DNA of 64,000 bases from Ilumatobacteraceae bacterium (lineage in GTDB: Bacteria > Actinomycetota > Acidimicrobiia > Acidimicrobiales > Ilumatobacteraceae). Positions 28,086 to 55,331 of the stretch are shown here, one piece after another. The notes beneath the pieces were generated by a model. It saw nothing but the letters and a program-made list of their open reading frames with translations, was not told where the DNA came from and did no database searches. Numbering within the stretch: the stretch's first letter is position 1; each line of letters opens with the position of its first letter. Location of the stretch: the NCBI GenBank assembly GCA_964203655.1, contig CAXNMJ010000005.1, forward strand, positions 52,407 to 116,406, written 5' to 3'. The translations under genes and the position numbers were made by a program.

Positions 28086-29357
<1,272 letters not shown>

Positions 29358-29834: not shown

Positions 29835-29890
29835 TCACTGCGCTCGTGTAGATTAAGCACGGCAACGAACCAAAGAGTCGGGTAAACACA

Positions 29891-32179
29891 ATGGCTGGAA
29901 GCATTCTTGGAAATCGCGTACTACGCAAAGAAGACCCAAAATTTCTGACATCGGGTGGAAAATACATTGAAGATTTAAACGACGAACCGCTTTTTGCCGG
30001 CGCTTTGCACGTGACCTACGTGCGATCAACTGTCGCCCACGCAAAAATCACAAATATCGATTTGTCAGAATGCAAAAATTCTCCTGGTGTTGTAGCGGTT
30101 TTTACCGCAGACGACCTTGGCCTCGAAGAAGAGCCTTCGGCTTTTAACCCGATGGCCAAACGGTCTCATCTGGCGAAGGGAAAAGTTCGATGGGTAGGAG
30201 AACTCGTCGCAGCCGTTGTAACGCAGCGACCAGACCAAGGCGAAGATGCAATCGAAAAAGCAATCGTTGAATACGAAACTCTTGAACCGCTAATTGATCT
30301 CGAGCAGGCGATGGTCAGCAAAACTTTGCTTTACGAAGAGTGCGGAACCAACATCGTTATGGGCACGGTCGAAATGGGAATGCCTGACAACACTGGTGAT
30401 GAAATTTTCAAAGACTGCGAAGTTGTGGTCAAGGGGCGCTTTATGAATCAGCGAGTGGCGCCATGCCCGCTCGAAGCTCGAGGCTCTGCTGCAATTTGGA
30501 TAAACGGCCGACTAACTCAATGGATTTCAACGCAACATGCCCAAGGTGTGCGCAACGAAGTTGTCAAAGCAAACAAGATTGACGCCGAGAACGTTCGGAT
30601 CATCACCCCAGATGTGGGCGGTGGCTTCGGGGCGAAGATCAGTGCATATTCTGAAGAGTTGTTGCTCGGCAATATCGCAAAACATGTCGGCAAAGCTGTT
30701 CGGTGGCGTGAAACTCGCAGCGAATCAATGATCAGCCTCGGGCATGGTCGCGCTCAACTGCAGTACGTAACAATCGGTGGCACCAAAGCTGGTCGCGTCA
30801 AGGCATATCAACTGAACGCGATTCAAGATTCAGGTGGCTGGGTTGAAGTCGGCACCGTGCTCGCACCATTCATGACGAGACCGATGGCCCAAGGCGTATA
30901 CGACATCGAAAAAATGGAGTGTCGCACCACTTCTGTTGTCACTAACACAACGCCAATTGTCGCCTACCGCGGTGCCGGCCGACCAGAAGCAACCGCAGCG
31001 ATCGAACGCGCGATGGATATGTTCGCCGCCGAAATTGGCAAAGACCCCGCCGACGTTCGACGCATGAACTTGATTCCGAAATTCAATCAACCGCACCAGA
31101 CAAAAATTGGCCATGCATATGATGTCGGCGACTACGGTGCTGCGCTTGACAAAGCGTTGACTGTTGCCAAATATTCTGAGGCACGAGCAGAACAGGCTGA
31201 ACGACGCAAACGTGGCGACAAAGTGCAACTCGGTATCGGTGTAAGTGTTTATGTCGAAATCACTGGTGGCGTTGACCCGATGCAAGAGCATGCAAAAATA
31301 AATATTCTGCCGAATGGTCGTGCGGTTGTCTTCACCGGCACTTCACCCCATGGTCAAGGACACGTCACGTCGTGGGCAATGATCGCCAGCAGCGAGACTG
31401 GCATCTCGATTGAAGATATTGACGTCGTCTGGGGCGATACTGACTTAGTACCAAATGGCGGCGGCACGATGGGCTCGAGGTCGCTGCAACAAGGCGGAGT
31501 TGCAGTTCAGAAAGTTTCAATTGAGATTGTTGACCAAGCAAGAAAACTTGCCGCTCAATTACTTGAAGCCAACGAAAGCGACATTGTTCTCGATAAACAA
31601 ACTGGCGCTTTTCATGTTGCCGGCACTCCAGCAATTTCAAAATCTTGGTCGGATGTCGCAAAGTTGGCCGATGTTAAGTCGGGTCTAACCCACGAAGGTA
31701 TTTTTGTGGCCGGGTCGGCGACGTTTCCATTTGGGTCACACGTGGCCATCGTTGAAGTTGACACCGAAACGGGCATGGTTAAACATCGACGACATATCGC
31801 ATGCGACGATGCAGGGCGCGTAATTAATCCACTTATTCTGGATGGACAAATTCATGGTGGCGTCGCCCAAGGTACGGCACAAGCGTTGCTCGAAGAGTTT
31901 CGCTACGACGAAGACGGCAACCCGATAACGACAAACTTCGCAGAATATACGTTTATTTCTGCCGTTGAGTTGCCCAGCATCGAGGTCGTTCATATGGAGA
32001 CGCCAACATTCGTGAACCCGCTTGGCGCCAAAGGCATCGGCGAGTCGGGCACGATTGGCTCAACTCCTGCTGTGCAATCTGCTGTTATTGACGCGCTCTC
32101 TCATTTGGGTGTACGTCACATCGATATGCCGACAACACCAGAACGAGTTTGGTCGGCTATTGCTCAAGCCTCTGCGTAG
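29891..32179 (+). CDS. Molybdopterin-binding large subunit of the xanthine dehydrogenase/aerobic CODH family, form-II CoxL-like, without adjacent S/M subunits
   Basis: 762 aa. N-terminal ..LRKEDPKFLTSGGKY.. motif. Active-site loop VAYRGAGRPEA (AYRGAGR at 30962-30982). C-terminal ..NPLGAKGIGESGTIGSTPAV... Confidence 0.85.
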   Translation: MAGSILGNRVLRKEDPKFLTSGGKYIEDLNDEPLFAGALHVTYVRSTVAHAKITNIDLSECKNSPGVVAVFTADDLGLEEEPSAFNPMAKRSHLAKGKVRWVGELVAAVVTQRPDQGEDAIEKAIVEYETLEPLIDLEQAMVSKTLLYEECGTNIVMGTVEMGMPDNTGDEIFKDCEVVVKGRFMNQRVAPCPLEARGSAAIWINGRLTQWISTQHAQGVRNEVVKANKIDAENVRIITPDVGGGFGAKISAYSEELLLGNIAKHVGKAVRWRETRSESMISLGHGRAQLQYVTIGGTKAGRVKAYQLNAIQDSGGWVEVGTVLAPFMTRPMAQGVYDIEKMECRTTSVVTNTTPIVAYRGAGRPEATAAIERAMDMFAAEIGKDPADVRRMNLIPKFNQPHQTKIGHAYDVGDYGAALDKALTVAKYSEARAEQAERRKRGDKVQLGIGVSVYVEITGGVDPMQEHAKINILPNGRAVVFTGTSPHGQGHVTSWAMIASSETGISIEDIDVVWGDTDLVPNGGGTMGSRSLQQGGVAVQKVSIEIVDQARKLAAQLLEANESDIVLDKQTGAFHVAGTPAISKSWSDVAKLADVKSGLTHEGIFVAGSATFPFGSHVAIVEVDTETGMVKHRRHIACDDAGRVINPLILDGQIHGGVAQGTAQALLEEFRYDEDGNPITTNFAEYTFISAVELPSIEVVHMETPTFVNPLGAKGIGESGTIGSTPAVQSAVIDALSHLGVRHIDMPTTPERVWSAIAQASA

Positions 32180-32212
32180 TTAAAAGACTCGCCCATCGTT
32201 TAATCTTTTGAA

Positions 32213-33220
32213 GTGAACGATTCGCCGATTATTGCCGAAAACTTAGTGCGTCATTTCGGCGACGTGCATGCCGTCAAGGGCATCAACCTTGAAGTGAAAG
32301 CCGGCGAAGTATTCGGCTTTCTCGGGCCGAACGGCGCGGGCAAGAGCACTGCAGTACGAATGTTGACCACCCTTTTGCGACCAACATCTGGCACTGCGAG
32401 AGTTGCGGGCTTCGACGTTGTCAAACAAGCAGATCAAGTGCGCCGAAGCATTGGCGTCGCGTTGCAAGATGCGGCGATTGACCCTCTGATGACGGGTGCT
32501 GAACTCTTGGCGTTGCAAGCAGTTCTCTATGGCATCCCGGCTTCGGTTTTGAAAAAACGATCGGATGAATTGCTTGAGCGTGTCGGACTCACCGCCGCCG
32601 CCTCACGACGAGTGTCGACTTATTCGGGCGGTATGCGTCGTCGACTTGATCTCGCGCTTTCTTTGATTCATCAACCAACAGTTTTATTTTTAGATGAACC
32701 TACAACTGGCCTCGACCCGATGAGTCGTCTGACATTATGGGAAGAAGTTCGCCGACTTAATCGCGAAGGCACGACCGTGATGCTGACGACACAATATTTA
32801 GAAGAAGCCGATCAACTTGCGGATCGAATCGCAATTATCGATCACGGAAAAATTGTTCGCGAGGGCAAACCGGCAGATTTGAAAGCGAGTGTTGGCGCGC
32901 CGACATTAATTATTAAAACAAATATTGATCAAACCGAAAAAGCCAAAGCAGTGCTCAGCACTTTTGGCGACTTGCGACCCGGTGCCGAAGGCGCTCTTGG
33001 TGTTGGTCTAATTGGCGGCGCGGCCCTCGTAACAGAAGTTGTGCGCAAACTTGATGAAGCAGGCGTGCATGTCGCACATCTAGAAATAAACGAGCCAAGC
33101 CTCGATGACGTATTCGCCGAGGCAACTGGTTATCGCCTTGAAGGTGCCGACAACGCACCTTCGGCCGGCGACAACGGCGACGAAGAGCCAAAAAAGAAAT
33201 CTCGTCGAGGGCGAAAGTGA
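32213..33220 (+). CDS. ABC transporter ATP-binding protein (DrrA / ABC-2 exporter type)
   Basis: 335 aa with a GTG start. Walker A GPNGAGKST, signature YSGGMRRR and Walker B LFLDEPTTGLD. Acidic then basic C-terminal tail (..GDNGDEEPKKKSRRGRK). Confidence 0.85.
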   Translation: MNDSPIIAENLVRHFGDVHAVKGINLEVKAGEVFGFLGPNGAGKSTAVRMLTTLLRPTSGTARVAGFDVVKQADQVRRSIGVALQDAAIDPLMTGAELLALQAVLYGIPASVLKKRSDELLERVGLTAAASRRVSTYSGGMRRRLDLALSLIHQPTVLFLDEPTTGLDPMSRLTLWEEVRRLNREGTTVMLTTQYLEEADQLADRIAIIDHGKIVREGKPADLKASVGAPTLIIKTNIDQTEKAKAVLSTFGDLRPGAEGALGVGLIGGAALVTEVVRKLDEAGVHVAHLEINEPSLDDVFAEATGYRLEGADNAPSAGDNGDEEPKKKSRRGRK

Positions 33221-34041
33221 CAAGCACGACAGCCGTAATGCCAGAGACTCAAGTTGTGCGTTCGCTGAATACCGCTATTCGCCAGACAATTGCACTGGCG
33301 AGACGATCGACGCTTGAACTGTTTCGTCAACCTGCCCTTGTTGTGCCGAGTTTGATTTTTCCGTTGTTCTTTTCTTTTCTCGGTAACTCGTCGTTCGGAA
33401 AGACAACTTCGTTGCCCGGCTTTCCCCAGGTGAGCTCGTATCTACAGTTTCAACTTGCCGGCACGATCACCCAAGGTGTCTTGTTTGGCTCGGTTACTGG
33501 TGCTGCTGCTTTAGCAACAGATATTGAAAACGGCTTTTTCGATCGCCTGCTCGCCTCTCCGACCTCGCGGACCTCAATTTTGTTTGGTCGCCTCGCGGGC
33601 AGCACTCTGTTCGGTGCGCTCGAAACTCTTGTATTTATCTTGGTTCTATTGCCATTTGGCGCAGATGTTGCCGCCGGAGTGCCAGGCATCATCGCCATGA
33701 CTATCAGTGGCGCACTGATCGCACTTGCAGTTGGTGCACTGATGGCATCTGTGGCGCTAAAGACCGGTTCATCAGAAGCAGTTCAAGGAACATTTCCGTT
33801 GCTATTTATTTTGTTGTTCTTCTCGAGTGCTTTTTTCCCACGCGAAACAATGAGTGGAATCTATAAAACGATTGCTGGTCTTAATCCGATCTCACATCTG
33901 GTCGAAGGTTTGCGAGCGCTCTCGCTTGAAGGGTTCACCGCGTCGGCAACCGCGCGTGCGATTCTCGTGCCACTGGCAATCGCAATTTTCGCCCTGTTGG
34001 TTGCGCAAACTCAACTTCGCGCAAGACTGCGAGCAAACTAG
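33217..34041 (+). CDS. ABC-2 type transporter permease
   Basis: 274 aa, six predicted TM segments. ..ENGFFDRLLASPTSRTSILFGRL.. is a typical ABC-2 motif. 4-nt overlap with the ATPase gene. Confidence 0.8.
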   Translation: MTSTTAVMPETQVVRSLNTAIRQTIALARRSTLELFRQPALVVPSLIFPLFFSFLGNSSFGKTTSLPGFPQVSSYLQFQLAGTITQGVLFGSVTGAAALATDIENGFFDRLLASPTSRTSILFGRLAGSTLFGALETLVFILVLLPFGADVAAGVPGIIAMTISGALIALAVGALMASVALKTGSSEAVQGTFPLLFILLFFSSAFFPRETMSGIYKTIAGLNPISHLVEGLRALSLEGFTASATARAILVPLAIAIFALLVAQTQLRARLRAN

Positions 34042-34865
34042 TGAACACAAACTCAATGACGCACCTAAATACATCAGACATGCACTCGACGACAATGCGC
34101 AGTGCGGGCCAGTTGATCAAACGCAGTTTGATCAACACCCGACGATTGCCTTCGGCGTTTCTGCCAACTTTGGCGATGCCGATTTTCAATATGGTCTCTT
34201 TTTCTGGAACATTTTTTGCACTCACAAAATTGCCGGGGTTTCCGACTGATCGTTCGGTCAACTGGTTTATGCCACTTGGTTTGGCAATGGGGTCTGCCTT
34301 CAGCGGAGTCGGTCTGGGCTTCTCGCTGATTCGCGATTTAGAAAATGGTTTCTATGATCGTCTGCGAATGGCACCGACTTCGCGCACGTCGCTGATCGTT
34401 GGACCAGTTCTTGCAACTTGGATTCGCGTCACGCTCGTGACGTTGTTTGTTTTTGGTGTCGGCACTTTGCTCGGCGCACGACCAACCGCGGGAGTTTTAA
34501 GTTACCTGTGCTCATGGATTGCCGCACTTGGAATCTCGACTATTGGTGCAGGCTGGGGCTTGGGTTTGGCGTATCGATTTCAAGATATGCGCGGCGCGGC
34601 AGTCATGCAGCTCTCTATTTTTTTGACGATGTTTTTGTCAACTGCTCAAGTGCCACTCAATGTGATGACCGGTTGGTTGCACACTGTGGCGCGAATCAAT
34701 CCGATTACAAATATTTTTAGACTGTCACGATCTGGTTGGGTGAACGCCAGCGACCCCGGCCACATGAGTTGGTCTAATGCCTATGGTGGTTTGATCGCGA
34801 TAGCCGTATTAAGTGTTTTGAGCCTGATCTTTGCTATTCGCAGTTTGCAAAAGATCGATAAATAG
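34041..34865 (+). CDS. ABC-2 type transporter permease (paralogue of the previous gene)
   Basis: 274 aa. ..ENGFYDRLRMAPTSRTSLIVGPV.. is the same motif as its neighbour. The start overlaps the preceding stop by 1 nt. Confidence 0.8.
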   Translation: MNTNSMTHLNTSDMHSTTMRSAGQLIKRSLINTRRLPSAFLPTLAMPIFNMVSFSGTFFALTKLPGFPTDRSVNWFMPLGLAMGSAFSGVGLGFSLIRDLENGFYDRLRMAPTSRTSLIVGPVLATWIRVTLVTLFVFGVGTLLGARPTAGVLSYLCSWIAALGISTIGAGWGLGLAYRFQDMRGAAVMQLSIFLTMFLSTAQVPLNVMTGWLHTVARINPITNIFRLSRSGWVNASDPGHMSWSNAYGGLIAIAVLSVLSLIFAIRSLQKIDK

Positions 34866-34959
34866 TTAAAAATCACGAATAAAGGCTTAAAAGAGCCCAT
34901 AAATAGCCCGATTTGTGCGATTGTCCCTAGTGGGGGCATGATTAGCCACAGGGGAAAGT

Positions 34960-34981
34960 GTTCGACAAATTTTTGTCGAAC
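34960..34981. promoter_or_regulatory. Perfect 10-bp inverted repeat (candidate operator) 19 nt upstream of coxS
   Basis: GTTCGACAAA-tt-TTTGTCGAAC. All 10 arm positions pair when checked by hand. It lies in the 134-bp gap before coxS. Confidence 0.5.
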
Positions 34982-34999
34982 CGAAAATGGGGGTTGAAG

Positions 35000-35458
35000 A
35001 TGAAAGTTTCAATCACGGTAAACGGCAAAAAGCAAGAGGCCGATGTAGAACCAAGAACGTTGCTTGTTCACTACATTCGCGAAACTCTCGGGCTTACTGG
35101 CACCAACGTAGGTTGTGACACTTCGAGTTGTGGTGCTTGCACGATTCACCTAGATGGTGAAGCGGTAAAGAGTTGCACGATTCTTGCTGTGCAGGCAGAC
35201 GGTACGTCGCTTACAACGATCGAGGGCTTGGCCAAAGATGGCGTGATGCATCCAATGCAAACAGCGTTCATGGAGAACCACGGGCTTCAATGCGGTTACT
35301 GCACACCAGGAATGGTGATGGCAGCAATTGGATTACTCAAAGAAAACCCGAAACCTACCGAAGACGAAGTGCGAATGGGTCTTGAAGGCAACTTGTGTCG
35401 TTGCACCGGGTATCACAACATCGTCAAGTCTGTGCTCGCCGCCGCGAGCGCAAAGTAA
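35000..35458 (+). CDS. coxS: [2Fe-2S] small subunit of a CODH/xanthine dehydrogenase-family enzyme (CoxS-like)
   Basis: Start ATG 35000 ([10 protein letters not shown]..). Cys clusters [15 protein letters not shown] and ..QCGYCTPGM...CRCTGY... Confidence 0.9.
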
Positions 35459-35469
35459 AGGGGTCGGTC

Positions 35470-37863
35470 ATGACAATCACCGAAAATAAACCAACTTCAG
35501 TAATCGGCACGAGGTTGCTGCGTCGTGAAGATCCGCCACTACTAACTGGCGAAGCAAAGTTCACAAACGACTTGAATATTCCTGGAGCGTTGCATCTCTC
35601 TGTTTTGCGCTCGCCGTTCGCGCACGCAAAAATTAAATCAATTGATGTTTCGGCTGCGTTAAAGATTGCCGGCGTGATCGCCATTTACACGGGCAAAGAT
35701 CTGCAATCATCGTGGGCGTCGCCAATGCCTTGCGCGTGGCCAGTCACCCCAGACATGAAGAATCCTGCTCACTACCCATTGGCGATTGACAAGGTCAATT
35801 ACGTGGGCGATGGTGTCGCGGCAATCTTGGCGACGAACGAAGTTGCCTCACGCGACGCCCTTGATGCGATCGATGTTCAATATGAACCGCTGAAGGCAGT
35901 GGTCGATCTTGAAGATTCGTTGAGCGACAAAAATATTATTCATACCGAATTAGGAACCAACAAGAGCTACACGTGGCCATTGTTGGTTGAAGAGACACCT
36001 GGCTGTGTCGAAGAAGCATTTAAAAAAGCCAAGTACAAAATTAAAGAGCGTTATGTTCAGCAGCGTTTGATACCAATGGCGATGGAGCCGCGAGCGATCG
36101 TTGCGGTGCCACAGCCCTTTGGTGGCGACATCACTCTTTATTCGTCGACACAGATTCCACACATTTTGAAAGTAATGACTGCTCTGACGCTTGGTATTCC
36201 TGAGCAGCAAGTGCGAGTTGTGGCGCCAAGCGTGGGTGGTGGCTTCGGTTCGAAACTCGATGTTTACGCTGAAGAACTTTTGTGCATGGCGCTTTCTCGC
36301 AAGCACAACGCCCCCGTGCGTTGGGTTGAGGAGCGTTCAGAAAATACGCAGGCAACGATTCAAGGTCGTGGACAAATTCAGCATGTTGAACTCGCTGCTG
36401 ACGAAAACGGCAAGATAACCGCAGTGCGAGTGCGCATTGTCGGAGACATGGGTGCGTATCTTCAACTTGTTACTCCAGGCGTGCCGCTTCTGGGTGCGTT
36501 TTTGTACGCCGGTGTTTACGACATTCCAAAGGCATATGACTTTGAGTGCACTTCGGTGTTCACAAATCTGACGCCGACTGATGCTTATCGCGGTGCTGGC
36601 CGACCAGAAGCCACATACGCAATCGAAATGGCGATAGAGGCTCTCGCGCGGGCGATGAAAATTGACTCGTTCGAGTTGCGCAAGCGCAACTACATCAAAA
36701 AAGAACAGTTTCCGTATTTGGCGTTTAGCGGTTTGACATACGACTCAGGTGATCACTTACTTGCTGCCGAAAAAGCCGCCAAGATGACCGACCTTGCGGG
36801 TGTGCGAGCACAACAAAAGAAACAAAACGTGCCCGGTGCAACAAAACTGCTCGGGCTTGGCATGAGTTCGTATTTTGAAATGTGCGGGCTTGCCCCGTCA
36901 CGAGTGTTGGCGTCACTCAACTACAGCGCAGGTGGATGGGAAGCCGCGACGGTGCGAGTGTTGCCAACGAACAAAGTTCAGGTCATCACCGGCACTTCGC
37001 CACACGGTCAAGGACACGAGACTTCTTGGGCGATGATCGCCGCCGAAAAACTTGGTGTTGCCCCAGAAGATGTAGACGTGTTGCACAGCGACACTGCTAT
37101 TTCTGCACTCGGTCTTGACACCTACGGATCGCGAAGTTTGCCGGTTGGCGGAGTGGCGATTGCGCTTGCGTGCGACAAGGTAATCGAAAAGGCAAAAACA
37201 ATTGCGGCCCATCAACTTGAGTGCGCAGCAGAAGACTTGCAGTTCGCCAATGGCACATTCAGCGTTAAGGGCTCACCAGATCGCGCTTTGCCGCTAGCGG
37301 CCATTGCCTTTGGTGCGTTCACCGCACATAACTTGCCAGAAGGTTGCGAACCAAACCTCGAAGCGCAAGTTTCATATGACCCGCCAAACTTCTCGTGGCC
37401 GTTCGGCACGCACATGTGCGTTGTTGAAGTCGACACCGAAACTGGCGCTGTGGAAATTCTCAAGTACATCGCCGTAGATGACTGTGGCAATCAAATTAAT
37501 CCTTTGATTGTTGAAGGTCAGGTACACGGCGGAGTTGTACAAGGCATCGCTCAAGCACTGTTTGAAGAAGCCGTATACGACGAAGATGGCAACTTGAAGT
37601 CGTCAAACCTCGCCGAATACCTCGTGCCAGCTGCATGCGACGTTCCGTCAATTACGACGGGCCACACGATCACTCCTTCACCGACCAATCAACTTGGCGT
37701 GAAGGGCATCGGTGAAGCGGGCACGATCGGTGCTGCGCCAACCGTGATCAGTGCGATCATTGATGCGCTTTCAGGGCTTGGTGTGACGACAATGGCGATG
37801 CCAGCATCACCACAAACAGTTTGGAAAACAATTCAAGCAGCAACTAGTGGAGGTAAGAAATGA
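35470..37863 (+). CDS. coxL: Molybdopterin-binding large subunit, form-II CoxL-like
   Basis: Start ATG 35470 (MTITENKPTSVIGTRLLRREDPPLLTGEAKF..) after AAGGGG. Active-site loop DAYRGAGRPEA (AYRGAGR at 36583-36603), not the form-I VAYRCSFR. C-terminal ..NQLGVKGIGEAGTIGAAP... Confidence 0.9.
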   Translation: MTITENKPTSVIGTRLLRREDPPLLTGEAKFTNDLNIPGALHLSVLRSPFAHAKIKSIDVSAALKIAGVIAIYTGKDLQSSWASPMPCAWPVTPDMKNPAHYPLAIDKVNYVGDGVAAILATNEVASRDALDAIDVQYEPLKAVVDLEDSLSDKNIIHTELGTNKSYTWPLLVEETPGCVEEAFKKAKYKIKERYVQQRLIPMAMEPRAIVAVPQPFGGDITLYSSTQIPHILKVMTALTLGIPEQQVRVVAPSVGGGFGSKLDVYAEELLCMALSRKHNAPVRWVEERSENTQATIQGRGQIQHVELAADENGKITAVRVRIVGDMGAYLQLVTPGVPLLGAFLYAGVYDIPKAYDFECTSVFTNLTPTDAYRGAGRPEATYAIEMAIEALARAMKIDSFELRKRNYIKKEQFPYLAFSGLTYDSGDHLLAAEKAAKMTDLAGVRAQQKKQNVPGATKLLGLGMSSYFEMCGLAPSRVLASLNYSAGGWEAATVRVLPTNKVQVITGTSPHGQGHETSWAMIAAEKLGVAPEDVDVLHSDTAISALGLDTYGSRSLPVGGVAIALACDKVIEKAKTIAAHQLECAAEDLQFANGTFSVKGSPDRALPLAAIAFGAFTAHNLPEGCEPNLEAQVSYDPPNFSWPFGTHMCVVEVDTETGAVEILKYIAVDDCGNQINPLIVEGQVHGGVVQGIAQALFEEAVYDEDGNLKSSNLAEYLVPAACDVPSITTGHTITPSPTNQLGVKGIGEAGTIGAAPTVISAIIDALSGLGVTTMAMPASPQTVWKTIQAATSGGKK

Positions 37864-38712: not shown

Positions 38713-38729
38713 GCAAAGCTAAGCGAGCG

Positions 38730-39026
38730 TTAGAAAGTTATTTGTGCGGCTGATCGAGTCGCAATATACGGCTTGAAATACTTTGCTCGAATCTCGTTGT
38801 GCAGAGCATCTTCGTCGTATGCACGCCAACCAGCGACGTCATCAAAAGTTGCGGCAATCAAATAGTTGGCGTTCGTAGGTGCCGAAACCCCCAAGTCAGG
38901 ACCACAACGAAAACTGCGGACACTTGGAATCTTCGCTGCCATCTCAGTTAAAACCTTGGTGATCACTTCGTGATAGTTGGCAGGAACTTGATCGTTCCAA
39001 GTTATTGCAACAACATGCTGCAACAT
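38730..39026 (-). CDS. Stress-responsive alpha/beta-barrel (Dabb) domain protein
   Basis: 98 aa. MLQHVVAITWND...IPSVRSFRCGPDLG....NYLIAATFDDVAGWRAYDEDALHNE.. fits the Dabb family. TGATG overlap with the SDR stop. Confidence 0.75.
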   Translation of the reverse strand: MLQHVVAITWNDQVPANYHEVITKVLTEMAAKIPSVRSFRCGPDLGVSAPTNANYLIAATFDDVAGWRAYDEDALHNEIRAKYFKPYIATRSAAQITF

Positions 39027-39773
39027 CAGATCAAACCCGAATAAGCGCCACCATCAACTTGCAAGTTGGCACCGGTAATAAATTTGGCGGACTCGCTGCA
39101 CAAAAATGCCGTTACGTTGCCAAAATCTTTTGGATCTCCAATAACACCTGCAGGAATACCCATGGTGCCAACATCTGGTGTTGAGCCATACAACTGGGTG
39201 ATGCGATCAGTCGCGTGAATACCCGGCTGAATTGTGTTCACCGTGACGCCGTCGGGTGCGACTTCGCGAGACACGGTTTTCAAAAAGCCGGTTAATCCTG
39301 CTCGCACTGTGTTTGACAAGATCAAAGATGCAATCGGCTGACGCACGGCAACCGAAGTTATCGCGACTACTCTGCCCCACTTGCGTGTTTGCATCGCGGG
39401 CACAACTAGTTTCGTCATCGCGATCATCGACATCAAACCGTTTTGTAAAGCAGTTTCGTAACTAGCGACATCGGTGCTGGCGAAGTTGCCTGCCGGTGGC
39501 CCGCCACTGTTGAGAATTAAAATATCAATTTGCCCAAGAGTTTTTGTGGCTTGGGCGATGAAGCTCTCGCCACCACTAACTGTTGAAACATCGGCAACAA
39601 TGCCAACACATGAGTGGCCAATTTTTGCGGCGGCATCTGCCACGCGCTTGGCGTCACGGCCACACATACACGACCCGCACACCGTCATTGGCCAGTGCCT
39701 GTGCCGTGGCAAAGCCAAGGCCAGCCGAGCCGCCCGCAACTGCAGCGGTGCGACCAGTAAGCCCAAGATCCAT
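39026..39773 (-). pseudogene. Short-chain dehydrogenase/reductase (SDR) with an apparent +1 frameshift after codon ~35
   Basis: ATG 39773 encodes MDLGLTGRTAAVAGGSAGLGFATAQALANDGVRVV(YVWP*), a Rossmann TGxxxGxG-type start. The rest (..MCGRDAKRVADAA...ILILNSGGP...ITSVAVRQP....) is in the +1 frame (ORF 39026..39766). The junction is within GTCGTGTATGTGTGG (about 39661-39672). Confidence 0.8.
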
Positions 39774-39804
39774 AAGGGTTCAGGTTAGTTCTGAGACGGC
39801 ACTA

Positions 39805-39825
39805 GCGACTTAGGCGACTTATAAT
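39805..39825 (+). promoter_or_regulatory. Tandem 8-mer direct repeat overlapping a TATAAT box in the SDR / FAD-oxidase divergent region
   Basis: GCGACTTA-g-GCGACTTA (39805-39812 and 39814-39821). TATAAT lies at 39820-39825, 25 nt upstream of ATG 39851. No convincing -35 box was seen. Confidence 0.3.
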
Positions 39826-39850
39826 TAGCCCTGTTAGGTGGTGAGACCCA

Positions 39851-41284
39851 ATGGGCCGATCGGCAATTCCGCCGCGGTCGAGCGAGCGTTACCTTGATGC
39901 AATAGCCGACGCGGAGACGTTTCCGTATTGGCTAGACGACGTTGACGAGCCCGACTCGAACCCCACAGCAGTTCACAACGAAGACTGCGACCTGTGCGTG
40001 GTTGGTGGCGGTTTCACGGGTCTTTGGACGGCGATAATCGCCAAACAACGCAACGCCAATAGCGAAGTCGTGTTGATTGAAGCACACGAAATTGGTTCTG
40101 GCGCAAGTAGCCGTAACGGCGGCTTCATGGATTATTCGTTGACTCATGGCATCGCCAACGCACAAGAGAGATTTCCTGACGAGGTTGCAGTTCTTGAACA
40201 ACTCGGCAGAGACAACATAACTGAAATTGAAAAAGTAATTCGCGACTACAAAATTGATTGCGACTTTGAGCGAAACGGCGCAATCGAAGTTGCCAGCAGT
40301 TGGCACCCTGAGAATTACACCGATGAATTGCAGCAAGACTATTTACAACTGCGCGAACTTGGTCACGACGTTGAGTGGTTAGATCTCGAAGCGATGCGCT
40401 CTGAAGTGCACTCGCCCGTTTTTACGGGTGGTCTGTGGGCAAAAGATACATCGGCGCTGGTTGACCCTGCTCGCCTGGCATGGGGGCTAAAGCGCGTTGC
40501 AGAAACTCTTGGCGTCAGAATTTACGAAGACACGCGCGCAGTCGATTTGAACGACACCAAGAAAAACATCGAGATAAAAACACCGCTCGCAAAAATCAAA
40601 GCCAAGAACGTCGCACTTGCAACGAACACGTTCAAGCCGTTGTTACGACAGATGAATAAATACATTGCTCCCGTCTACGACTATTGCTTGGTCACTGAGC
40701 CACTTTCTTCAGAACAACTCGCAAGTATTGGTTGGAAGAATCGCCAAGGCCTCGCAGATTGCTCAAACCAGTTTCACTATTTCAGATTGACTGCCGACAA
40801 CCGAGTTCTGTGGGGCGGCTATGACGCAATTTATTATTTCGGCGGTCAGATGGACAAAGAACTTGAATCTCGACCCGAGACATGGGCGACGCTCTCGCAA
40901 CAGTTCTTCACGACATTTCCACAACTTGAAGGCGTCAAGTTTTCGCACATGTGGGGTGCGCCGATTGATACATGCGCGCGATACAGCGTTTTTTGGGGCA
41001 CGCACTTTGACAACCGCGTGGCGTATGCGCTCGGCTACACGGGTCTAGGTGTTGGTGCATCTCGATTTGGTGGCGAAGTAATGCTCGACCTGCTTGCAGG
41101 CAACGAAACACGTGCAACGCGCACAGAGTTTGTGCAAACAAAACCCCGGGCGTTTCCACCTGAGCCGTTCAGATTCATCGGCATTCAAGCCACCAAGTGG
41201 TCGCTTGATTACGAAGACCGCACTGGCAAGCGCAATCTATGGCTGCGTCTACTTGACCGACTGGGCTTGGGCTTTGACTCGTGA
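39851..41284 (+). CDS. FAD-dependent oxidoreductase (DAO family, PuuB/OrdL-like)
   Basis: 477 aa. Dinucleotide-binding CDLCVVGGGFTGLWTAIIA and ..GSGASSRNGGF... Confidence 0.75.
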   Translation: MGRSAIPPRSSERYLDAIADAETFPYWLDDVDEPDSNPTAVHNEDCDLCVVGGGFTGLWTAIIAKQRNANSEVVLIEAHEIGSGASSRNGGFMDYSLTHGIANAQERFPDEVAVLEQLGRDNITEIEKVIRDYKIDCDFERNGAIEVASSWHPENYTDELQQDYLQLRELGHDVEWLDLEAMRSEVHSPVFTGGLWAKDTSALVDPARLAWGLKRVAETLGVRIYEDTRAVDLNDTKKNIEIKTPLAKIKAKNVALATNTFKPLLRQMNKYIAPVYDYCLVTEPLSSEQLASIGWKNRQGLADCSNQFHYFRLTADNRVLWGGYDAIYYFGGQMDKELESRPETWATLSQQFFTTFPQLEGVKFSHMWGAPIDTCARYSVFWGTHFDNRVAYALGYTGLGVGASRFGGEVMLDLLAGNETRATRTEFVQTKPRAFPPEPFRFIGIQATKWSLDYEDRTGKRNLWLRLLDRLGLGFDS

Positions 41285-41301
41285 TCTTCTAGCCTGACGA
41301 G

Positions 41302-42219
41302 ATGAGTTTGCAGTCTGTTGCCGACGTGCGCAACGCTCTTGACGAGCAAAACTACATCGCCAGTGACGGCTTGGCGACCGCGGTATTTTTAGCAATCTCA
41401 CTAAATCGACCGCTGTTACTTGAAGGCGAAGCAGGCGTGGGTAAAACCGAACTTGCCAAAGCACTCGCAACAATTCGACAAAGCGAACTTATTCGTCTGC
41501 AATGTTACGAAGGTATTGACGCCGCTCAAGCAATGTACGACTGGGACTATTCACGACAGTTGTTGCATCTGCGCACCGTTGAAGCCACGGGCGAAGCGAC
41601 ACAACTCGGTGCCGACAAACTTGAGGGTCAGTTATATAGCGAAAAGTTTTTGATTCGCCGAGCGCTGCTTCGTGCGATTGACCAACATGCAGGTGCTTCG
41701 CCGGTTCTACTGATCGACGAAATCGATCGCGCTGACGACGAGTTTGAAGCATATTTGTTAGAAGTTTTGTCAGACTTTCAAATCACGATTCCTGAACTTG
41801 GCACATACAAAGCAACAACCCCACCACTAGTTGTGTTGACTTCAAATCGCACCCGAGATGTGCACGATGCTCTAAAGCGTCGATGCTTGTATCACTGGGT
41901 TGAACACCCCGACTTTGATCGTGAAGTCGAAATTGTTACGCGACGCGTGCCACAAGTTGATGCAACACTCGCCCGACAAGTTGCCGGCGCCGTTGAGTCA
42001 CTTCGCAAGATGCAGCTCTACAAACCACCTGGTGTTGCCGAGACAATTGACTGGGCAACAGCTTTGGGACGACTCGGCGTTCGCGAACTTGACGAGTCTG
42101 TAGTGCAAGCAACCCTCGGCACCGTGCTCAAGTATCGCGAAGACCACGAACGTGTGCGCGAAAACGGTGTCGCAACTTTGGTTAAACAGGCCTTTGAGCG
42201 GGGCTTGTACAGCAACTGA
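41302..42219 (+). CDS. MoxR-type AAA+ ATPase (CoxD-like maturation factor)
   Basis: 305 aa. Walker A GEAGVGKTELAKALA and Walker B LLIDEIDRA. The position upstream of a vWA gene matches coxD-coxE. Confidence 0.85.
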   Translation: MSLQSVADVRNALDEQNYIASDGLATAVFLAISLNRPLLLEGEAGVGKTELAKALATIRQSELIRLQCYEGIDAAQAMYDWDYSRQLLHLRTVEATGEATQLGADKLEGQLYSEKFLIRRALLRAIDQHAGASPVLLIDEIDRADDEFEAYLLEVLSDFQITIPELGTYKATTPPLVVLTSNRTRDVHDALKRRCLYHWVEHPDFDREVEIVTRRVPQVDATLARQVAGAVESLRKMQLYKPPGVAETIDWATALGRLGVRELDESVVQATLGTVLKYREDHERVRENGVATLVKQAFERGLYSN

Positions 42220-43380
42220 TGACAGCCAACTCGTCGCCTGCCAACAAAATGGCGGTGGCGTTTGCGCGCATTTTGCGCGGCGCCGGACTAGATGTTCCTC
42301 TCGACTCGGTAATCGTTTTTGTTGGCTGCTCTCACGCAACTCGGTCTAGAGAATCGAGAAAACGTTTATTGGTCGGCACACGCGACGTTGATTCGTCGAC
42401 ACGAAGATGTGCAGATCTTTGACCGTGCATTCAAGGTGTTTTGGGAACAACAAATCGCTGTCGATACAGCCACTTTTGAAGAGCAGCAAGAGTCAATTAC
42501 TTTGCTGGTTGACGACGAAGATGCCAACACCGATGATTCATCGGCCGAACCAATAGAAGATGAAAACACAATCGCTTTGCGGTTTTCAAGAATCGAAACT
42601 TTGCGTGAAAAAGACTTTGCTGCTTACAACCAACTTGAATTGCGCGAAGCAGAACAATTCATGGCCAGTCTAAGATTGGCGGGTCCTCCCAAAAAGTCTC
42701 TGCGCTTGACAAAAACAAATCGTCATGGCGCAAGACACGACATTCGCCGCACAATGCGCGCAACTCTGCAACACGATGGTGAGCCAATCGAGCGTTACTG
42801 GCGCGAACCGAGCACAAAATTGCGACGCCTGGTGGTCTTGCTCGACATTTCTGGCTCAATGGAGCCATACGCCCGAGCGCTTTTGCGCTTCATGCACGCC
42901 GCAGTTGTCGGTCGACAAAAAGTTGAAGCCTTTACTTTCGGCACACGGCTAACTCGCATCACAAAAGAATTGTCAAGCCGCGATCCCGACAAAGCGCTCG
43001 CCCAAACTTCTGCTCAAGTTTCTGACTGGAGCGGCGGCACTCGTCTTGGTGAGTGCCTACAAAGTTTCAATGACAATTGGGGCGTGGGCGGCATGGCACG
43101 TGGCTCGATTTTTGTAATTCTCTCTGACGGTTGGGACCGTGGTGATCCGAAAGTTTTGGCCGACCAGATGTCGCGTCTCAGCCGTGTTGCATACCGCGTG
43201 ATTTGGGTTAACCCGCTCAAGGTGAGCCCTGGCTATGCACCATTGGCTCGTGGCATGGCGGCCGCAATGCCATACATTGATGAGTTCGTCGAAGGACACT
43301 CGCTTGAGGCACTTCGCGAATTAACCGAAGTGATTTCGAAAGACTCAAACGAAAGACGAAAGACAGTTACACATGCGTGA
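42219..43380 (+). pseudogene. vWA-domain protein (CoxE-like) with an apparent +1 frameshift in a T5 run (42316-42320)
   Basis: ORF 42219..42422 starts MTANSSPANKMAVAFARILRGAGLDVPLDSVIVF... The +1 frame continues (L)LAALTQLGLENRENVYWSAHATLIRRHEDVQIFDRAF.. (ORF 42319..43380). The MIDAS-like segment is LLDISGSM. Confidence 0.8.
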
Positions 43381-43690
43381 AATTTTGGGTGACATTGACC
43401 GTTGGCGCGCACAGAACAAACGAATCGCCATTGCCCGCGTTGTCGACATCGAAGGCTCAGGACCACGCGATCCGGGTGCAGCAATGGCAGTCAATCAAGA
43501 TGGTGAAGTTTGTGGGTCGGTCTCGGGTGGTTGTGTCGAAGGTGCCGTCGTGGCTGAAGCCCTAGAAATACTTTCAACCAACAGCCCTGGTCGGCTCGTG
43601 AAGTTTGGCTACTCAGACGACGAGGCATACGCAGTCGGCTTGACTTGTGGAGGCGTAGTACATCTGTTTATTGCGCCTCTCACTTGGTAG
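43373..43690 (+). CDS. Stand-alone XdhC/CoxI N-terminal-domain protein
   Basis: 105 aa. ..RIAIARVVDIEGSGPRDPGAAMAVNQDGEVCGSVSGGCVEGAVV.. is the XdhC_CoxI signature. 8-nt overlap with the vWA gene. Confidence 0.75.
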   Translation: MREILGDIDRWRAQNKRIAIARVVDIEGSGPRDPGAAMAVNQDGEVCGSVSGGCVEGAVVAEALEILSTNSPGRLVKFGYSDDEAYAVGLTCGGVVHLFIAPLTW

Positions 43691-43699
43691 TTGAGTTAA

Positions 43700-44509
43700 A
43701 TGATTTACTCTGCTCTCGCCGAAAGAATTCGCAACAATAAACCTGTCGTTCTACTCACAGTGATTGACGGGCCGAATCTCGGCGCGACCTTGTTGGCTTC
43801 GCCAAGTGGCAGCAAACTCGACACGCTCGGCACACTCGGCGACCCAGAACTTGATCGCGTCGCCGTGCGTGATGCACTAGGTGAACTTGAAGCAGGTCGC
43901 ACCAGCGTGCGCAACTACGGCCCAACCGGACAAGTAACGCCAGAAGACCTGACCGACACACCGATCGTTCGAATATTTGTCGAGTCATATTCACCACCAC
44001 CACAGATGATTATTTTTGGAGCAGTTGACTTCACTGCTGCACTCGCTCGGGTTGCAAAAGTTCTCGGCTACTACGTGGTGGTCTGTGATGCACGTGAAGT
44101 TTTTGCGACAACGCGAAGATTTCCAATGGCTGATGAAGTTCTAGTTACATGGCCAACACCTGTGCTCGCCAAGCGCGGCGACAATCTCGGTGCGCGAGAC
44201 GCAATTTGCATTCTGACTCATGATCCAAAATTTGATGTACCGGCGATTCAAGGAGCCCTCGCTACCAAAGTTGGCTACATCGGGGTTATGGGCAGCCGCA
44301 AGACACACGCCAAGCGACTCGAGCGACTTGCCGAGGTGGGCATCTCAAAGCGTGAGGATCTAGACAGATTGATGTCACCGATCGGTCTTGATATTGGTTC
44401 ACGCACCCCAGAAGAGACAGCGATTTCGATTTGTGCCGAAATCATCGGCAAACGTGTTGGCCGAATTGTTCCGTCACTGTCAAATAGTGATGGCCCGATT
44501 CATAAATAA
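43700..44509 (+). CDS. XdhC-family molybdenum-cofactor insertion chaperone (CoxF/CoxI-like)
   Basis: 269 aa. N-terminal XdhC_CoxI-like segment plus a Rossmann-like XdhC_C part (..MIIFGAVDFTAALARVAKVLGYYVVVCDARE...THDPKFDVPA...YIGVMGSRK..). Confidence 0.85.
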   Translation: MIYSALAERIRNNKPVVLLTVIDGPNLGATLLASPSGSKLDTLGTLGDPELDRVAVRDALGELEAGRTSVRNYGPTGQVTPEDLTDTPIVRIFVESYSPPPQMIIFGAVDFTAALARVAKVLGYYVVVCDAREVFATTRRFPMADEVLVTWPTPVLAKRGDNLGARDAICILTHDPKFDVPAIQGALATKVGYIGVMGSRKTHAKRLERLAEVGISKREDLDRLMSPIGLDIGSRTPEETAISICAEIIGKRVGRIVPSLSNSDGPIHK

Positions 44510-44510
44510 T

Positions 44511-45194
44511 TTATTGCGTTGGGTCAACCCATCGCACCCAATTGATTCGCGACTCGTTGATCTCGTGCACCTCAACATTGCGACCATTCGTAGGCGCTTG
44601 AATAACGATGTTTTGAAAACCGAGTGACATTGAAATATGCCCTGGATACCACGCCAGGTCACCCAGTTGAACTTCGCTCGCCTTGACGCGTTCGCCAACC
44701 GCGTATTGCTGAGCCGAGCCACGTGGCATTTTCAGACCAGCATTCGACCATGCGAACTTGATCAACGCCGAACAGTCGAGCGCTCGGCCTGGTTCGTCGG
44801 CGTTTGTTTTATATGGCACACCCAGTTGAGTTAGTGCCGAAAACAAAACCTTTTGTCGATCGATGCCAGATTGTTGCCAAGACTGCGTCAACTCTTTGCT
44901 ACTGATCTCGAGGTGTTCGGCAATAATCTTTGCGATCGAATTCACCCAGCGCGAAGCAACGTCTTTTTGCTCAACAGCACTGACATTTTCGGCTGCTTCA
45001 AGCGCATCGAGTGCGAGTTGAGCCTGCATCGCCACCCAGGCTGACTCGATTGCTGGCATCGGCTTGGCTGAGACAGCCCCGACGCCGAGACGTCCTGGCA
45101 GTGGGGCCAGCCCGGTTGCCAGCAATAGGCCCAGCAAAAGCGAGGCGCCAAGCGTCTTAATTGATTTTGGGTAATACGAAACTCGTGCTGTCAT
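44511..45194 (-). CDS. Secreted NlpC/P60-family peptidoglycan endopeptidase
   Basis: 227 aa. N-terminal signal/TM segment. The catalytic region is ..GRALDCSALIKFAWSNAGLKMPRGSAQQY...GDLAWYPGHISMSLG.. (Cys and His of NlpC/P60). Confidence 0.85.
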   Translation of the reverse strand: MTARVSYYPKSIKTLGASLLLGLLLATGLAPLPGRLGVGAVSAKPMPAIESAWVAMQAQLALDALEAAENVSAVEQKDVASRWVNSIAKIIAEHLEISSKELTQSWQQSGIDRQKVLFSALTQLGVPYKTNADEPGRALDCSALIKFAWSNAGLKMPRGSAQQYAVGERVKASEVQLGDLAWYPGHISMSLGFQNIVIQAPTNGRNVEVHEINESRINWVRWVDPTQ

Positions 45195-45345
45195 GTTTAT
45201 TTGTCCTTTCGGACCCGCCAGCTGGCAGGCTTTCGACTGTTAAACGACCCTCCGCCCGGAGAACCCAGTTCGCGCCTTACTTATTGCTTGTCATTACCTT
45301 AAACAAGCCGTGTAACACGGTAATAACGAGGTGACTAGATGCCTA
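45195..45345 (-). promoter_or_regulatory. Long structured 5' leader of the NlpC/P60 gene (candidate cis-regulatory RNA and/or operator)
   Basis: The 275-bp gap is unusual for this genome. The leader has hairpins CCGUG-UUA-CACGG, CUUGU-(11 nt)-ACAAG and UCUCC-GGGC-GGAGG. It also has the 10-bp palindrome GCCAGCTGGC (45217-45226) and GUCC-GAAA-GGAC (45203-45214), which covers the AAGGA Shine-Dalgarno. Confidence 0.35.
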
Positions 45346-45469
45346 TAAAGCATGTTTACATCACGATGTAACTTTCGTCACTAATGCACTTGCAAACCTG
45401 TTTGTTTCATGGAGAAAAATTCTCAGCCAATATTTGAAATAAAACTTTGCAAATCTTTAGTATGAAGGC

Positions 45470-45730
45470 ATGCCGATCTCGCTTAAGACACTTGCCGCAA
45501 AAAGTTCATCACAACAAAAAATTGTCGCCAGCGAACTTCGTAAACAAAGAATTAAGGCTGAATTAAGTCAAGACGAACTTGCGCAACGAGCCGGAATCGA
45601 CCGCAAAACAATCAATCGCATCGAGAACGGCCACTTTTCTCCAACGCTAGACACGATTACGCGCTTATGCGTCGTGCTCAAGATAACCCCAGGTACTTTA
45701 TTGGGTAGTGGTCGAAGCACCAAAAAGTAA
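45470..45730 (+). CDS. XRE-family helix-turn-helix transcriptional regulator
   Basis: 86 aa. ..LRKQRIKAELSQDELAQRAGIDRKTINRIENGHFSPTLDTITRLCVVL.. is a classic Cro/C1 HTH. TTGAAA (45434-45439), 18 nt, then TAGTAT (45458-45463) lie just upstream, so the mRNA may be near-leaderless. Confidence 0.85.
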   Translation: MPISLKTLAAKSSSQQKIVASELRKQRIKAELSQDELAQRAGIDRKTINRIENGHFSPTLDTITRLCVVLKITPGTLLGSGRSTKK

Positions 45731-45748
45731 CTCGAGATTGCGGGCGTC

Positions 45749-46351
45749 GTGAAAAACGACGTCGCATCGACTGCAATTTTGTTATCTGCAGGTAGTGGCT
45801 CGAGGTTTTCGGGCACGAATCATAAGTTGCTCACAGAGATCTCGGGGCAAACTGTTTTCGCTTGGGCCCTCAAAAATTTGATGCAAGCAAACTTTCGCCA
45901 CAATATTGTTGTCACCGGAGCGGTCGACTTGTCATCGCAGATTTCTGAGACAATGCTCTCTTCGGATAATTTTCAAATAGTAAAAAACCCAAATTGGCAG
46001 ATGGGCATGGCCAGTAGTTTGCAGTGCGGTCTTCAAATAGCCCAAAGTCTTGGTGCGAGCACCGTGGTTATCGGCCTCGCTGATCAACCTGCAATTACCC
46101 CCTCAAGTTGGCAACGCGTAGCAAGTGCAACAGCGCCTCTGGCTGTTGCCACATATAACGGTGTGCGAGGCAACCCAGTGCGTGTGCATGCCGAACTCTG
46201 GCCGCTGCTACCCACAACAGGCGATGAAGGTGCGCGAAGTTTGTTTAAATCACACCAAGACTTACTCGAAGAAATTGCCTGTGAGGGCTCGGCGCTAGAT
46301 CTTGACACGACTAACGACATCGACACATTGACAAGACTGCTCAGCCAATGA
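45749..46351 (+). CDS. MobA-like nucleotidyltransferase, probable molybdenum cofactor cytidylyltransferase (MocA-like)
   Basis: 200 aa with a GTG start. ILLSAGSGSRFSGTNHKLL and ..VVIGLADQPAITPSSW.. motifs. The context is MCD-dependent CoxL-type enzymes. Confidence 0.7.
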   Translation: MKNDVASTAILLSAGSGSRFSGTNHKLLTEISGQTVFAWALKNLMQANFRHNIVVTGAVDLSSQISETMLSSDNFQIVKNPNWQMGMASSLQCGLQIAQSLGASTVVIGLADQPAITPSSWQRVASATAPLAVATYNGVRGNPVRVHAELWPLLPTTGDEGARSLFKSHQDLLEEIACEGSALDLDTTNDIDTLTRLLSQ

Positions 46352-54267: not shown

Positions 54268-54285
54268 GAGACATCTCGGTCATGG

Positions 54286-55305: not shown

Positions 55306-55331
55306 GATCGCATTTCCATAGATTGAGCATA

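Follow-up and report, generated by a model that had tools for sequence, protein, structure and literature searches.

We analyzed a 64,000-nucleotide stretch of an Ilumatobacteraceae bacterium (contig CAXNMJ010000005.1; hereafter the window), in which a 16.5-kb block of 17 genes, among them a cox-type molybdenum hydroxylase cluster, lies between ftsB (divIC) and DUF501 of the actinobacterial eno-ftsB-DUF501-ppx operon. We conclude, with a probability of roughly 70%, that this is the normal, old arrangement of the freshwater acIV lineage of Acidimicrobiia and that the encoded enzyme is not a true Mo-Cu CO dehydrogenase (CODH). A cox-type cluster would have entered the operon between ftsB and DUF501 long ago and would since have been inherited vertically with lineage-specific gains and losses. 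What looks like an island is in this case an old vertical trait, what look like pseudogenes are probable assembly errors, and the 'CO dehydrogenase' label on abundant freshwater acIV genomes is a misreading that the active-site loop does not back.

The ancestral operon is well documented. In a recent survey, eno-divIC-Rv1025-ppx2 was intact in 61 of 63 genomes and divIC 'always' adjoined DUF501; no Acidimicrobiia were sampled (bioRxiv 10.64898/2026.08.31.746906). This agrees with the contiguity in M. tuberculosis and most Actinomycetes that an earlier, sequence-only reading of the window had taken as its premise. The open reading frame (ORF) list and Pfam scans of the window gave these four genes with order and orientation unchanged, all on the plus strand: eno (enolase, 28089-29357, with Enolase_N/Enolase_C calls on identical contigs), the ftsB/divIC-like septum gene (29403-29834, a weak PF04977 DivIC match of 24.9 bits vs a cut-off of 28.9), DUF501 (Rv1025 family, 46348-46809, PF04417), and ppx (Ppx/GppA phosphatase, 46826-47744, PF02541). 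Unlike in the operon as surveyed, divIC is not the immediate neighbor of DUF501 here. The operon is broken just 3′ of ftsB, and 17 genes (29891-46351) follow before DUF501, whose start is overlapped by the stop of the last block gene, mocA, as ATGA. DUF501-ppx are translationally coupled to mocA in the window and to coxG in two relatives (L021 and L030). The split, the 17 genes with their families, and the overlap had all been described correctly from the sequence alone.

The window represents a core chromosome, with suf, ychF, metG, glmU, prs, L25, pth, mfd, mazG, and eno, and its GC content is ∼51% throughout. Its enolase is closest to those of metagenome-assembled genomes (MAGs) of Ilumatobacteraceae and other Acidimicrobiia (best identity 76%), and the exact enolase and DUF501 proteins were found on hundreds of lake-metagenome contigs that are ∼99% identical to the window and share its layout. 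The host is thus an abundant freshwater acIV-type (Ilumatobacteraceae-like) actinobacterium.

Gene order was shared by every relative examined, at the species, genus, and family levels, although a given locus covers one half of the block, either the eno side or the DUF501 side. The right half, including XRE-MocA beside DUF501, was the same in L099-L104 (DUF501 83-95% identical) and L107-L109 (NlpC 62-79% identical). The left half was kept as eno-DivIC-CoxL1-ABC x3-CoxS-CoxL2-CoxM in L105 and L106 (CoxL1 ∼70% identical), and in L105 it continues as (PAP2)-Dabb-SDR-DAO-MoxR. L011, the nearest GTDB species representative, has a shorter CoxL1-CoxS-CoxM-PAP2-SDR-DAO-MoxR-VWA-XdhC run, and the marine L110 has CoxS-CoxM-DAO-MoxR-VWA-XdhC-XdhC/NlpC/MocA-CoxG-DUF501. 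L018 and L030 hold only MoxR-VWA-XdhC-XdhC-(NlpC)-MocA-CoxG beside DUF501, with no large subunit. In a neighbor-joining tree of the large subunits, the CoxL1 orthologues formed one clade whose branching mirrors the species tree, while CoxL2 grouped with the second large subunit of L013.

The composition of the block was indistinguishable from that of its flanks. Tetranucleotide distances in 4-kb windows across the block lay between -1.2 and +1.25 standard deviations of the window mean. The 17 block genes and 36 flanking genes differed in codon usage to an extent also seen between random partitions (permutation p = 0.35), and the GC content at third codon positions was 0.49 in the block vs 0.52 in the flanks. 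Ratios of nonsynonymous to synonymous substitution (dN/dS) between population contig L091 and congener L101 were 0.025-0.15 for block genes and 0.018-0.062 for flanking genes, values that are rough, with dS saturated (>1), and that point to strong purifying selection. Taken together, synteny, composition, and selection argue for long vertical inheritance under selection and largely refute a recent acquisition. Set against the operon seen across the phylum, the block is an old insertion, and for this family it is ancestral; an ancient acquisition before the family diverged is compatible with the data and forms part of our best explanation.

Features of mobility were likewise lacking. Pfam scans found no integrase or transposase domain in the 17 block proteins, there is no tRNA gene near the block closer than 18601, and no meaningful direct repeat flanks its borders. 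The sequence-only reading had noted the lack of such features and had called the block tightly integrated rather than recently mobile, and both statements hold. When the entire window was scanned against Rfam with gathering thresholds, tRNA-Gln was the only match, and no molybdenum cofactor (Moco) riboswitch was found. One pair of att-like 19-nt near-repeats at 29976 and 46460, spaced by about the block length, was rejected, as both lie inside CoxL1/DUF501 coding sequence and the pair is at about chance level (about one such pair in 19 kb by our own estimate).

To place the arrangement within the class, we surveyed the junction in ∼34 Acidimicrobiia loci fetched with the enolase (about half of the 80 enolase loci were proteobacterial). 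Cox-type genes were present at the junction in an Ilumatobacteraceae-like clade (the window, L011-L013, L015, and L017-L019) and in a second deep clade (L021, L025-L027, L030, L033, and the sponge symbiont L034), and these carriers span 46-72% GC. Since an FtsB-like ORF directly follows eno in the second clade and in most of the first, both share the same insertion point. Cox genes were missing from the site in 13 of about 31 informative Acidimicrobiia. A compact junction, with an eno-DUF501 gap of 392-1010 bp that has room for ftsB alone, was found in seven (L022, L023, L028, L029, L031, L039, and L049). Others carried unrelated cargo, including MFS, DUF4331, and SDR genes (L014), ATP synthase genes (L016), adenylate cyclase (L024), DUF4214 proteins (L032 and L035), and Rpf-like transglycosylases (L040 and L045); L037 also holds unrelated genes here. 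The junction is hence a recurrent insertion or rearrangement point in Acidimicrobiia, where interruptions of the 'invariant' divIC-DUF501 adjacency are frequent and most commonly consist of the cox cluster. This documents a lineage-wide exception to the reported adjacency and is relevant to ideas on what the essential DUF501 family does.

To classify the enzyme, we used motifs, bit scores against PDB sequences, and NCBIfam cut-offs. The structural genes, all on the plus strand, encode the large subunits CoxL1 (29891-32179, 762 aa) and CoxL2 (35470-37863, 797 aa), the [2Fe-2S] small subunit CoxS (35000-35458, 152 aa), and the FAD-binding medium subunit CoxM (37860-38684). Their domains are those of the xanthine oxidase/molybdenum hydroxylase family: both large subunits have the full three-domain architecture of an a/b-hammerhead and two Moco-binding domains (PF01315, PF02738, and PF20256; called in CoxL1 as Ald_Xan_dh_C, MoCoBD_1, and MoCoBD_2), CoxS has PF00111 and PF01799 (Fer2 and Fer2_2), and CoxM has PF00941 and PF03450 (FAD_binding_5 and CO_deh_flav_C). 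CoxL1 and CoxL2 are old paralogues, being only 39% identical. Both contain VGGGFGAK/VGGGFGSK and KGIGESGT/KGIGEAGT motifs, and the KGIGE segment holds what we take to be the equivalent of the catalytic Glu of characterized enzymes.

When the large subunits were aligned to PDB sequences, the active-site loop read AYRGAGRP in both, as compared with AYRCSFRV in 1FFU and 1N5W, AYACSFRI in 8UEM, and SYRGAGRPE in 4ZOH, which is of the Sulfurisphaera/Sulfolobus type. The AYRGAGR loop also occurs in all 11 large subunits found at the site in relatives, and neither CoxL1 nor CoxL2 has the Cu-ligand cysteine loop (A/S)YRCS(F/L)R of form I. By the published loop definitions (PMC13240472), both large subunits classify as form II. 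The CoxS-CoxL2-CoxM run also has the coxS-L-M order by which form II is defined (PMC7645674), with CoxL1 as an orphan upstream of the ABC-2 exporter. As for database models, no NCBIfam equivalog cut-off was reached by CoxL1 or CoxL2. Against TIGR02416 (CODH), CoxL1 scored 504 and CoxL2 650 bits vs a cut-off of 991, and the best or joint-best models for all of CoxL1, CoxL2, CoxS, and CoxM were those of glyceraldehyde oxidoreductase (NF041018/19/20), again below their cut-offs (621 and 646 vs 790 for the large subunits, 246 vs 290 for CoxS, and 279 vs 350 for CoxM). The best PDB match of both large subunits was 8UEM (480 bits for CoxL1, 636 for CoxL2), followed by 1FFU, 1N5W, quinoline oxidoreductase 1T3Q, 7DQX, and 4ZOH. 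As the form II loop offers no cysteine for binding Cu, a true Mo-Cu CODH is most likely not what we have here; an aldehyde- or heterocycle-type oxidoreductase appears more likely, and its substrates are perhaps aldehydes made by the co-clustered SDR and DAO enzymes.

The two large subunits are not equivalent. Positions 35457-37835 of the window are missing in L001, L002, L006, L007, and L091-L095 (in L001, the counterpart is 17357-17382). The junction keeps ∼27 nt, then ∼25 nt of the CoxL2 3′ end, and CoxS ends up 40 nt from CoxM. Because remnants of the CoxL2 3′ end remain at the junction, the absence is a deletion and not a scaffold gap. The deleted haplotype has its own CoxS variant of 154 aa, found on 55 contigs, and the exact 152-aa form of the window was found on 38; L011 likewise has CoxL1-CoxS-CoxM with no CoxL2 in between. 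The flanking 33.9-35.5 kb are also more diverged (96-97% identity) in the CoxL2-deleted haplotype. CoxL1 is the conserved resident of the site; CoxL2 can be dispensed with, and a haplotype common in lakes has lost it. The earlier description of two CoxL-type large subunits was right as to their presence, and what it lacked is this difference between them.

On the simplest reading, CoxL1 is a possible partner of CoxS and CoxM, with CoxL2 as an additional, accessory catalytic subunit; one CoxS/CoxM pair would then probably serve either CoxL1, which is always present, or CoxL2, which segregates in lake populations. A bolder version, which we consider unlikely, takes the ftsB-DUF501 junction as an ancient docking site where a maturation kit is coupled to the essential DUF501-ppx pair and where one CoxS/CoxM pair accepts interchangeable large subunits, CoxL1 being fixed and CoxL2 segregating. 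If true, this would give a strain-variable substrate range on one shared maturation and electron-transfer chassis. In a more remote extension, DUF501, a predicted Cys-His-Glu metalloprotein, may itself take part in cofactor or metal handling in these lineages. The natural CoxL2-containing and CoxL2-deleted haplotypes lend themselves to comparison in the search for the substrate of form II CoxL enzymes, whose genes are very abundant among aquatic bacteria.

The sequence-only reading had also reported that the SDR and VWA genes carry frame disruptions. To examine this, we compared reading frames between the window and 18 population contigs (∼99% identical) and found six breaks, each a private 1-bp insertion: at 21513 in L25, at 39667 (an extra T) in SDR, at 42324 (an extra G) in VWA, at ∼47013 in ppx, at 48584 in a gene for a 168-aa hypothetical protein, and at 53821 in MoaC. 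The break in ppx and the further ones outside the block had escaped the sequence-only reading. All are insertions, with no deletions; none lies in a long homopolymer, and none occurs in any ∼99%-identical contig. Two fall within the 16.5-kb block vs four in the ∼22 kb of outside sequence that was compared. None of the six genes is broken on the population contigs, where SDR (39026-39773, minus strand, adh_short_C2) has 248 aa, VWA_CoxE (42219-43380, plus strand, PF05762 at 205 bits) 386 aa, and ppx 305 aa. The disruptions are thus real in this sequence but private to its assembly. Assembly errors are the best reading of them, or at most mutations found nowhere else, and not decay of the cluster.

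The constant element of the site is not the enzyme but its maturation kit, since L018 and L030 keep the kit without any CoxL and the structural and accessory genes vary on the ftsB side. The stable core consists of MoxR/CoxD, VWA/CoxE, two XdhC proteins, and MocA, plus CoxG in relatives. In the window these are, besides VWA and all on the plus strand, a CoxD-like MoxR-type AAA+ ATPase (41302-42219, AAA_5/AAA; NF047784, 294 bits vs a cut-off of 475), a short XdhC_CoxI-domain protein of 105 aa (43373-43690, PF02625), a CoxF/CoxI-like XdhC-family chaperone for Moco insertion and maturation (43700-44509, XdhC_C and XdhC_CoxI; NF045664, 133 bits, below its cut-off), and a MobA/MocA-like nucleotidyltransferase, a probable molybdopterin cytidylyltransferase (45749-46351, PF12804; best NCBIfam model TIGR03310, MocA/YgfJ, at 92 bits vs 186). 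A literature search on 'MadB/MadC', the NCBIfam names for the MoxR and VWA proteins, gave nothing useful.

A tblastn search with five CoxG proteins, which covered the 64-kb window and not the rest of the genome, found no CoxG, and CoxG is also absent from the junction of congeners. It lies between MocA and DUF501 in L018, L021, L025, L030, L034, and L110. The clade of the window has lost it, with an XRE gene between nlpC and mocA instead. We further observed CoxG (PF06240) directly upstream of DUF501 in many Acidimicrobiia, L036 and L042 joining the six above; at the L036 junction we detected no further cox gene, and the L042 contig ends within the CoxG match. The structural and maturation genes for a CoxL-type molybdenum hydroxylase are present as had been described, whereas the claim of a 'complete toolkit' for an enzyme with a molybdopterin cytosine dinucleotide cofactor goes too far, as CoxG is missing from the window and MocA can be assigned at the family level only.

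MocA-type enzymes make the cytosine dinucleotide form of Moco, and XdhC-family chaperones sulfurate and insert it. In Oligotropha, the AAA+ ATPase CoxD drives sulfuration, and CoxE and CoxF act in later steps (PMC4240915); CoxG is a menaquinone shuttle for the mycobacterial enzyme (PMC12202499). We infer the cofactor form, substrate, subunit sharing, and transcription units of the present system from its gene families and their arrangement. MocA would convert Mo-molybdopterin to the cytosine dinucleotide form, and the XdhC proteins together with MoxR and VWA would sulfurate the cofactor and insert it into the large subunit. CoxL, CoxS with its [2Fe-2S] clusters, and CoxM with FAD would then form a three-subunit hydroxylase that oxidizes a small organic substrate and passes the electrons on. 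SDR, Dabb (38730-39026, minus strand, PF07876, a stress-responsive alpha/beta barrel protein), and the DAO-family FAD oxidoreductase (39851-41284, plus strand, PF01266; nearest NCBIfam model TIGR03329, 246 bits vs a cut-off of 633) are conserved companions in the family, and DAO starts a packed run with MoxR-VWA-XdhC. A speculative pathway would lead from an alcohol or amine to an aldehyde (SDR and DAO) and on to an acid (the Mo enzyme), in line with how close all three subunits come to the thresholds of the glyceraldehyde oxidoreductase models.

We weighed several other accounts of the history of the block. Taken literally, the earlier framing makes it a horizontally acquired genomic island. 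Such an origin would explain why an operon intact in 61 of 63 sampled Actinobacteria is interrupted here, why 13 Acidimicrobiia genomes lack the genes, and why gene content at the site differs between lineages, and presence is indeed not universal. However, the patchy presence among close relatives expected of an island was not seen, the relatives from species to family level sharing genes and order on each half. The block occurs in all relatives examined down to ∼70% CoxL1 identity, among carriers of 46-72% GC, its composition and codon usage equal those of the flanks, its CoxL1 tree follows the species tree, and it has no integrase, transposase, tRNA, or flanking repeats. We consider an island very improbable and do not retain the view of the insert as peculiar to this genome; the signs of an ancestral arrangement that the sequence-only reading had named, shared genes at the site in relatives and composition like that of the flanks, were largely seen. 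Alternatively, the junction may be a recombination hot spot at which cox-type genes landed independently in the two clades, as the unrelated cargo in L014, L016, L024, L032, L035, L040, and L045 could suggest. Both clades, however, share the order MoxR-VWA-short XdhC-XdhC-...-MocA-CoxG-DUF501 and the insertion point after ftsB, and the CoxL1 orthologues form a single clade, so we judge independent landings to be improbable, if less so than an island. A decaying cluster, in which SDR and VWA have become pseudogenes and maturation of the enzyme has ceased, would agree with the two broken frames, the loss of CoxG, and the deletion of CoxL2 in the sister haplotype. Against it, like insertions hit L25, ppx, the 168-aa gene, and MoaC outside the block at the counts given above, population contigs lack all of them, and the block genes are under strong purifying selection; decay is highly unlikely.

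With respect to function, the alternative is a working, slow form II aerobic CODH that yields lithoheterotrophic energy from photochemical CO in lake water. Source records annotate these proteins as 'CO dehydrogenase' or 'xanthine dehydrogenase family' subunits, the best PDB matches (8UEM, 1FFU, and 1N5W) are Mo-CODH large subunits, the CoxD/E/F-like accessory set is present, and Mizuno et al. proposed slow CO oxidation for the form II genes of planktonic Acidimicrobiales (PMC4337565). The missing Cu-ligand cysteine loop in both large subunits and their scores of 504 and 650 bits, well under the TIGR02416 cut-off of 991, speak against this, as does the lack of CoxG in the window, given that M. 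smegmatis cells need CoxG for CO oxidation (PMC12202499). The CO-oxidizing activity of form II is described as unresolved (PMC13240472; PMC7645674; PMC4337565), and no CO oxidation was found in Roseobacter strains that carry such genes (PMC13240472; PMC4337565). We therefore regard a slow CODH as unlikely, although it deserves more weight than an island, independent landings, or decay. Several points do weigh against an old, vertically inherited cluster for an enzyme other than CODH. Slow CO oxidation has been proposed for form II enzymes, as noted, and classical descriptions of a CoxD/E/F-like kit concern form I CODH. None of MocA, MoxR, VWA, and XdhC reaches its NCBIfam equivalog cut-off. 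The loci from relatives give one half of the block each, with none spanning it, the dN/dS values are rough, and other Acidimicrobiia have unrelated genes at this junction. The trees of species and of CoxL were built quickly by neighbor joining from partial data and are compatible with one ancient insertion or with a few old insertions at a hot spot, and the sharing of CoxS/CoxM by two large subunits is deduced from gene arrangement.

A form II cox-like cluster is of a known kind, and its presence in the class was already known, form II CODH-like genes having been described from freshwater acAcidi as well as from every planktonic marine Acidimicrobiales genome (PMC4337565); nothing here is categorically new biology. 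What goes beyond routine annotation is the divIC-DUF501 exception, the stability of the kit rather than the enzyme at the site, and the CoxL2 presence/absence polymorphism. With the form II coxSLM clusters of Aminobacter carboxidus, Bradyrhizobium, Roseobacter, and marine MedAcidi Acidimicrobiales, the cluster shares the AYRGAGR loop, the S-L-M order (CoxS-CoxL2-CoxM), and the three-subunit Mo/FeS/FAD architecture. Unlike them, it has an orphan CoxL1 upstream with an ABC-2 exporter in between, a full CoxD/E/F-like kit plus MocA, a polymorphic CoxL2, and a position inside eno-ftsB-DUF501-ppx. The form I Mo-Cu CODHs (Oligotropha carboxidovorans coxMSLDEFG; Mycobacterium smegmatis CoxSML-CoxG, 8UEM) provide the closest solved structures and share accessory families, with MoxR AAA+ resembling CoxD, VWA resembling CoxE, and XdhC-like proteins resembling CoxF/CoxI (PMC4240915). 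They differ from the cluster in the window in their Cu-binding cysteine loop, in the M-S-L order as opposed to S-L2-M with L1 apart, and in CoxG, and the large subunits of the window score below the TIGR02416 cut-off. Archaeal glyceraldehyde oxidoreductase (NF041018/19/20; the related 4ZOH), whose models fit best or joint-best and whose relative 4ZOH shares the loop (SYRGAGRPE), differs in that the cluster scores below its cut-offs, in the bacterial lineage, and in the pathway context.

Next to the kit lies a divergent intergenic region between nlpC and xre. The NlpC/P60 (C40) peptidase gene (44511-45194, minus strand, PF00877) encodes an N-terminal hydrophobic segment and is kept at the same position in L012, L018, and L107-L110. 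The XRE-family helix-turn-helix regulator (45470-45730, plus strand, 86 aa) was identified from its ORF and from HTH_31/HTH_3 matches on the identical gene of population contigs. Between them, at 45308-45320, we found a perfect 13-nt palindrome, CCGTGTAACACGG, which is unique in the window (0 expected by chance) and is kept in every examined relative with an XRE gene; it was not seen in L110 and L018, both of which lack XRE. The palindrome is a candidate XRE operator that may control nlpC and xre-mocA-DUF501-ppx. As the cluster cut DUF501-ppx off from eno-ftsB, these two genes are probably transcribed together with xre-mocA from this intergenic region. Scans for promoter and terminator consensus sites were uninformative, since they returned fewer sites than in shuffles. 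We also observed a ∼135-nt leader 5′ of nlpC (45195-45330, minus strand) that is ∼90% conserved in relatives whose neighboring genes have dS > 1, and in which hairpins are plausible, one combining a conserved stem with a variable loop, the other lying over the ribosome-binding site. This leader had no Rfam match, and its minimum free energy was not unusual (z = -0.64); it is absent in the more distant L108 and L109, and the nlpC leader of L018 is not alignable to it. A ydaO/c-di-AMP riboswitch upstream of NlpC/P60 found no support, as scanning the intergenic region against Rfam at permissive settings yielded no match above chance level.

The remaining block genes, all on the plus strand, encode the exporter: a DrrA-like ABC ATPase (32213-33220, ABC_tran and DrrA1-3_C), which is linked to CoxL1 or CoxS in L012, L019, L026, L027, L105, and L106, and two ABC-2 permeases (33217-34041 and 34041-34865, both PF01061). 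Outside the block, just 7 kb further downstream, are the Moco biosynthesis genes moaC-moaA-moeA (53782-56549, minus strand), called on identical contigs by their MoaC, Radical_SAM with Mob_synth_C, and MoeA domains; the same holds for all close relatives examined. Among the MAG records, L025 and L038 are titled 'Bifidobacterium breve' yet carry Acidimicrobiia-type eno-ftsB-CoxL1 loci at 54-58% GC and are probably mislabelled or contaminated bins. Lastly, the sole tetranucleotide outlier in the window (z = 3.3) was 4001-8000, which encodes an Opp/Dpp-type ABC importer (permeases and a fused ATPase) and a family-5 solute-binding protein, whose ORF starts ∼480 nt past the preceding gene and whose N-terminus may also be frame-broken.

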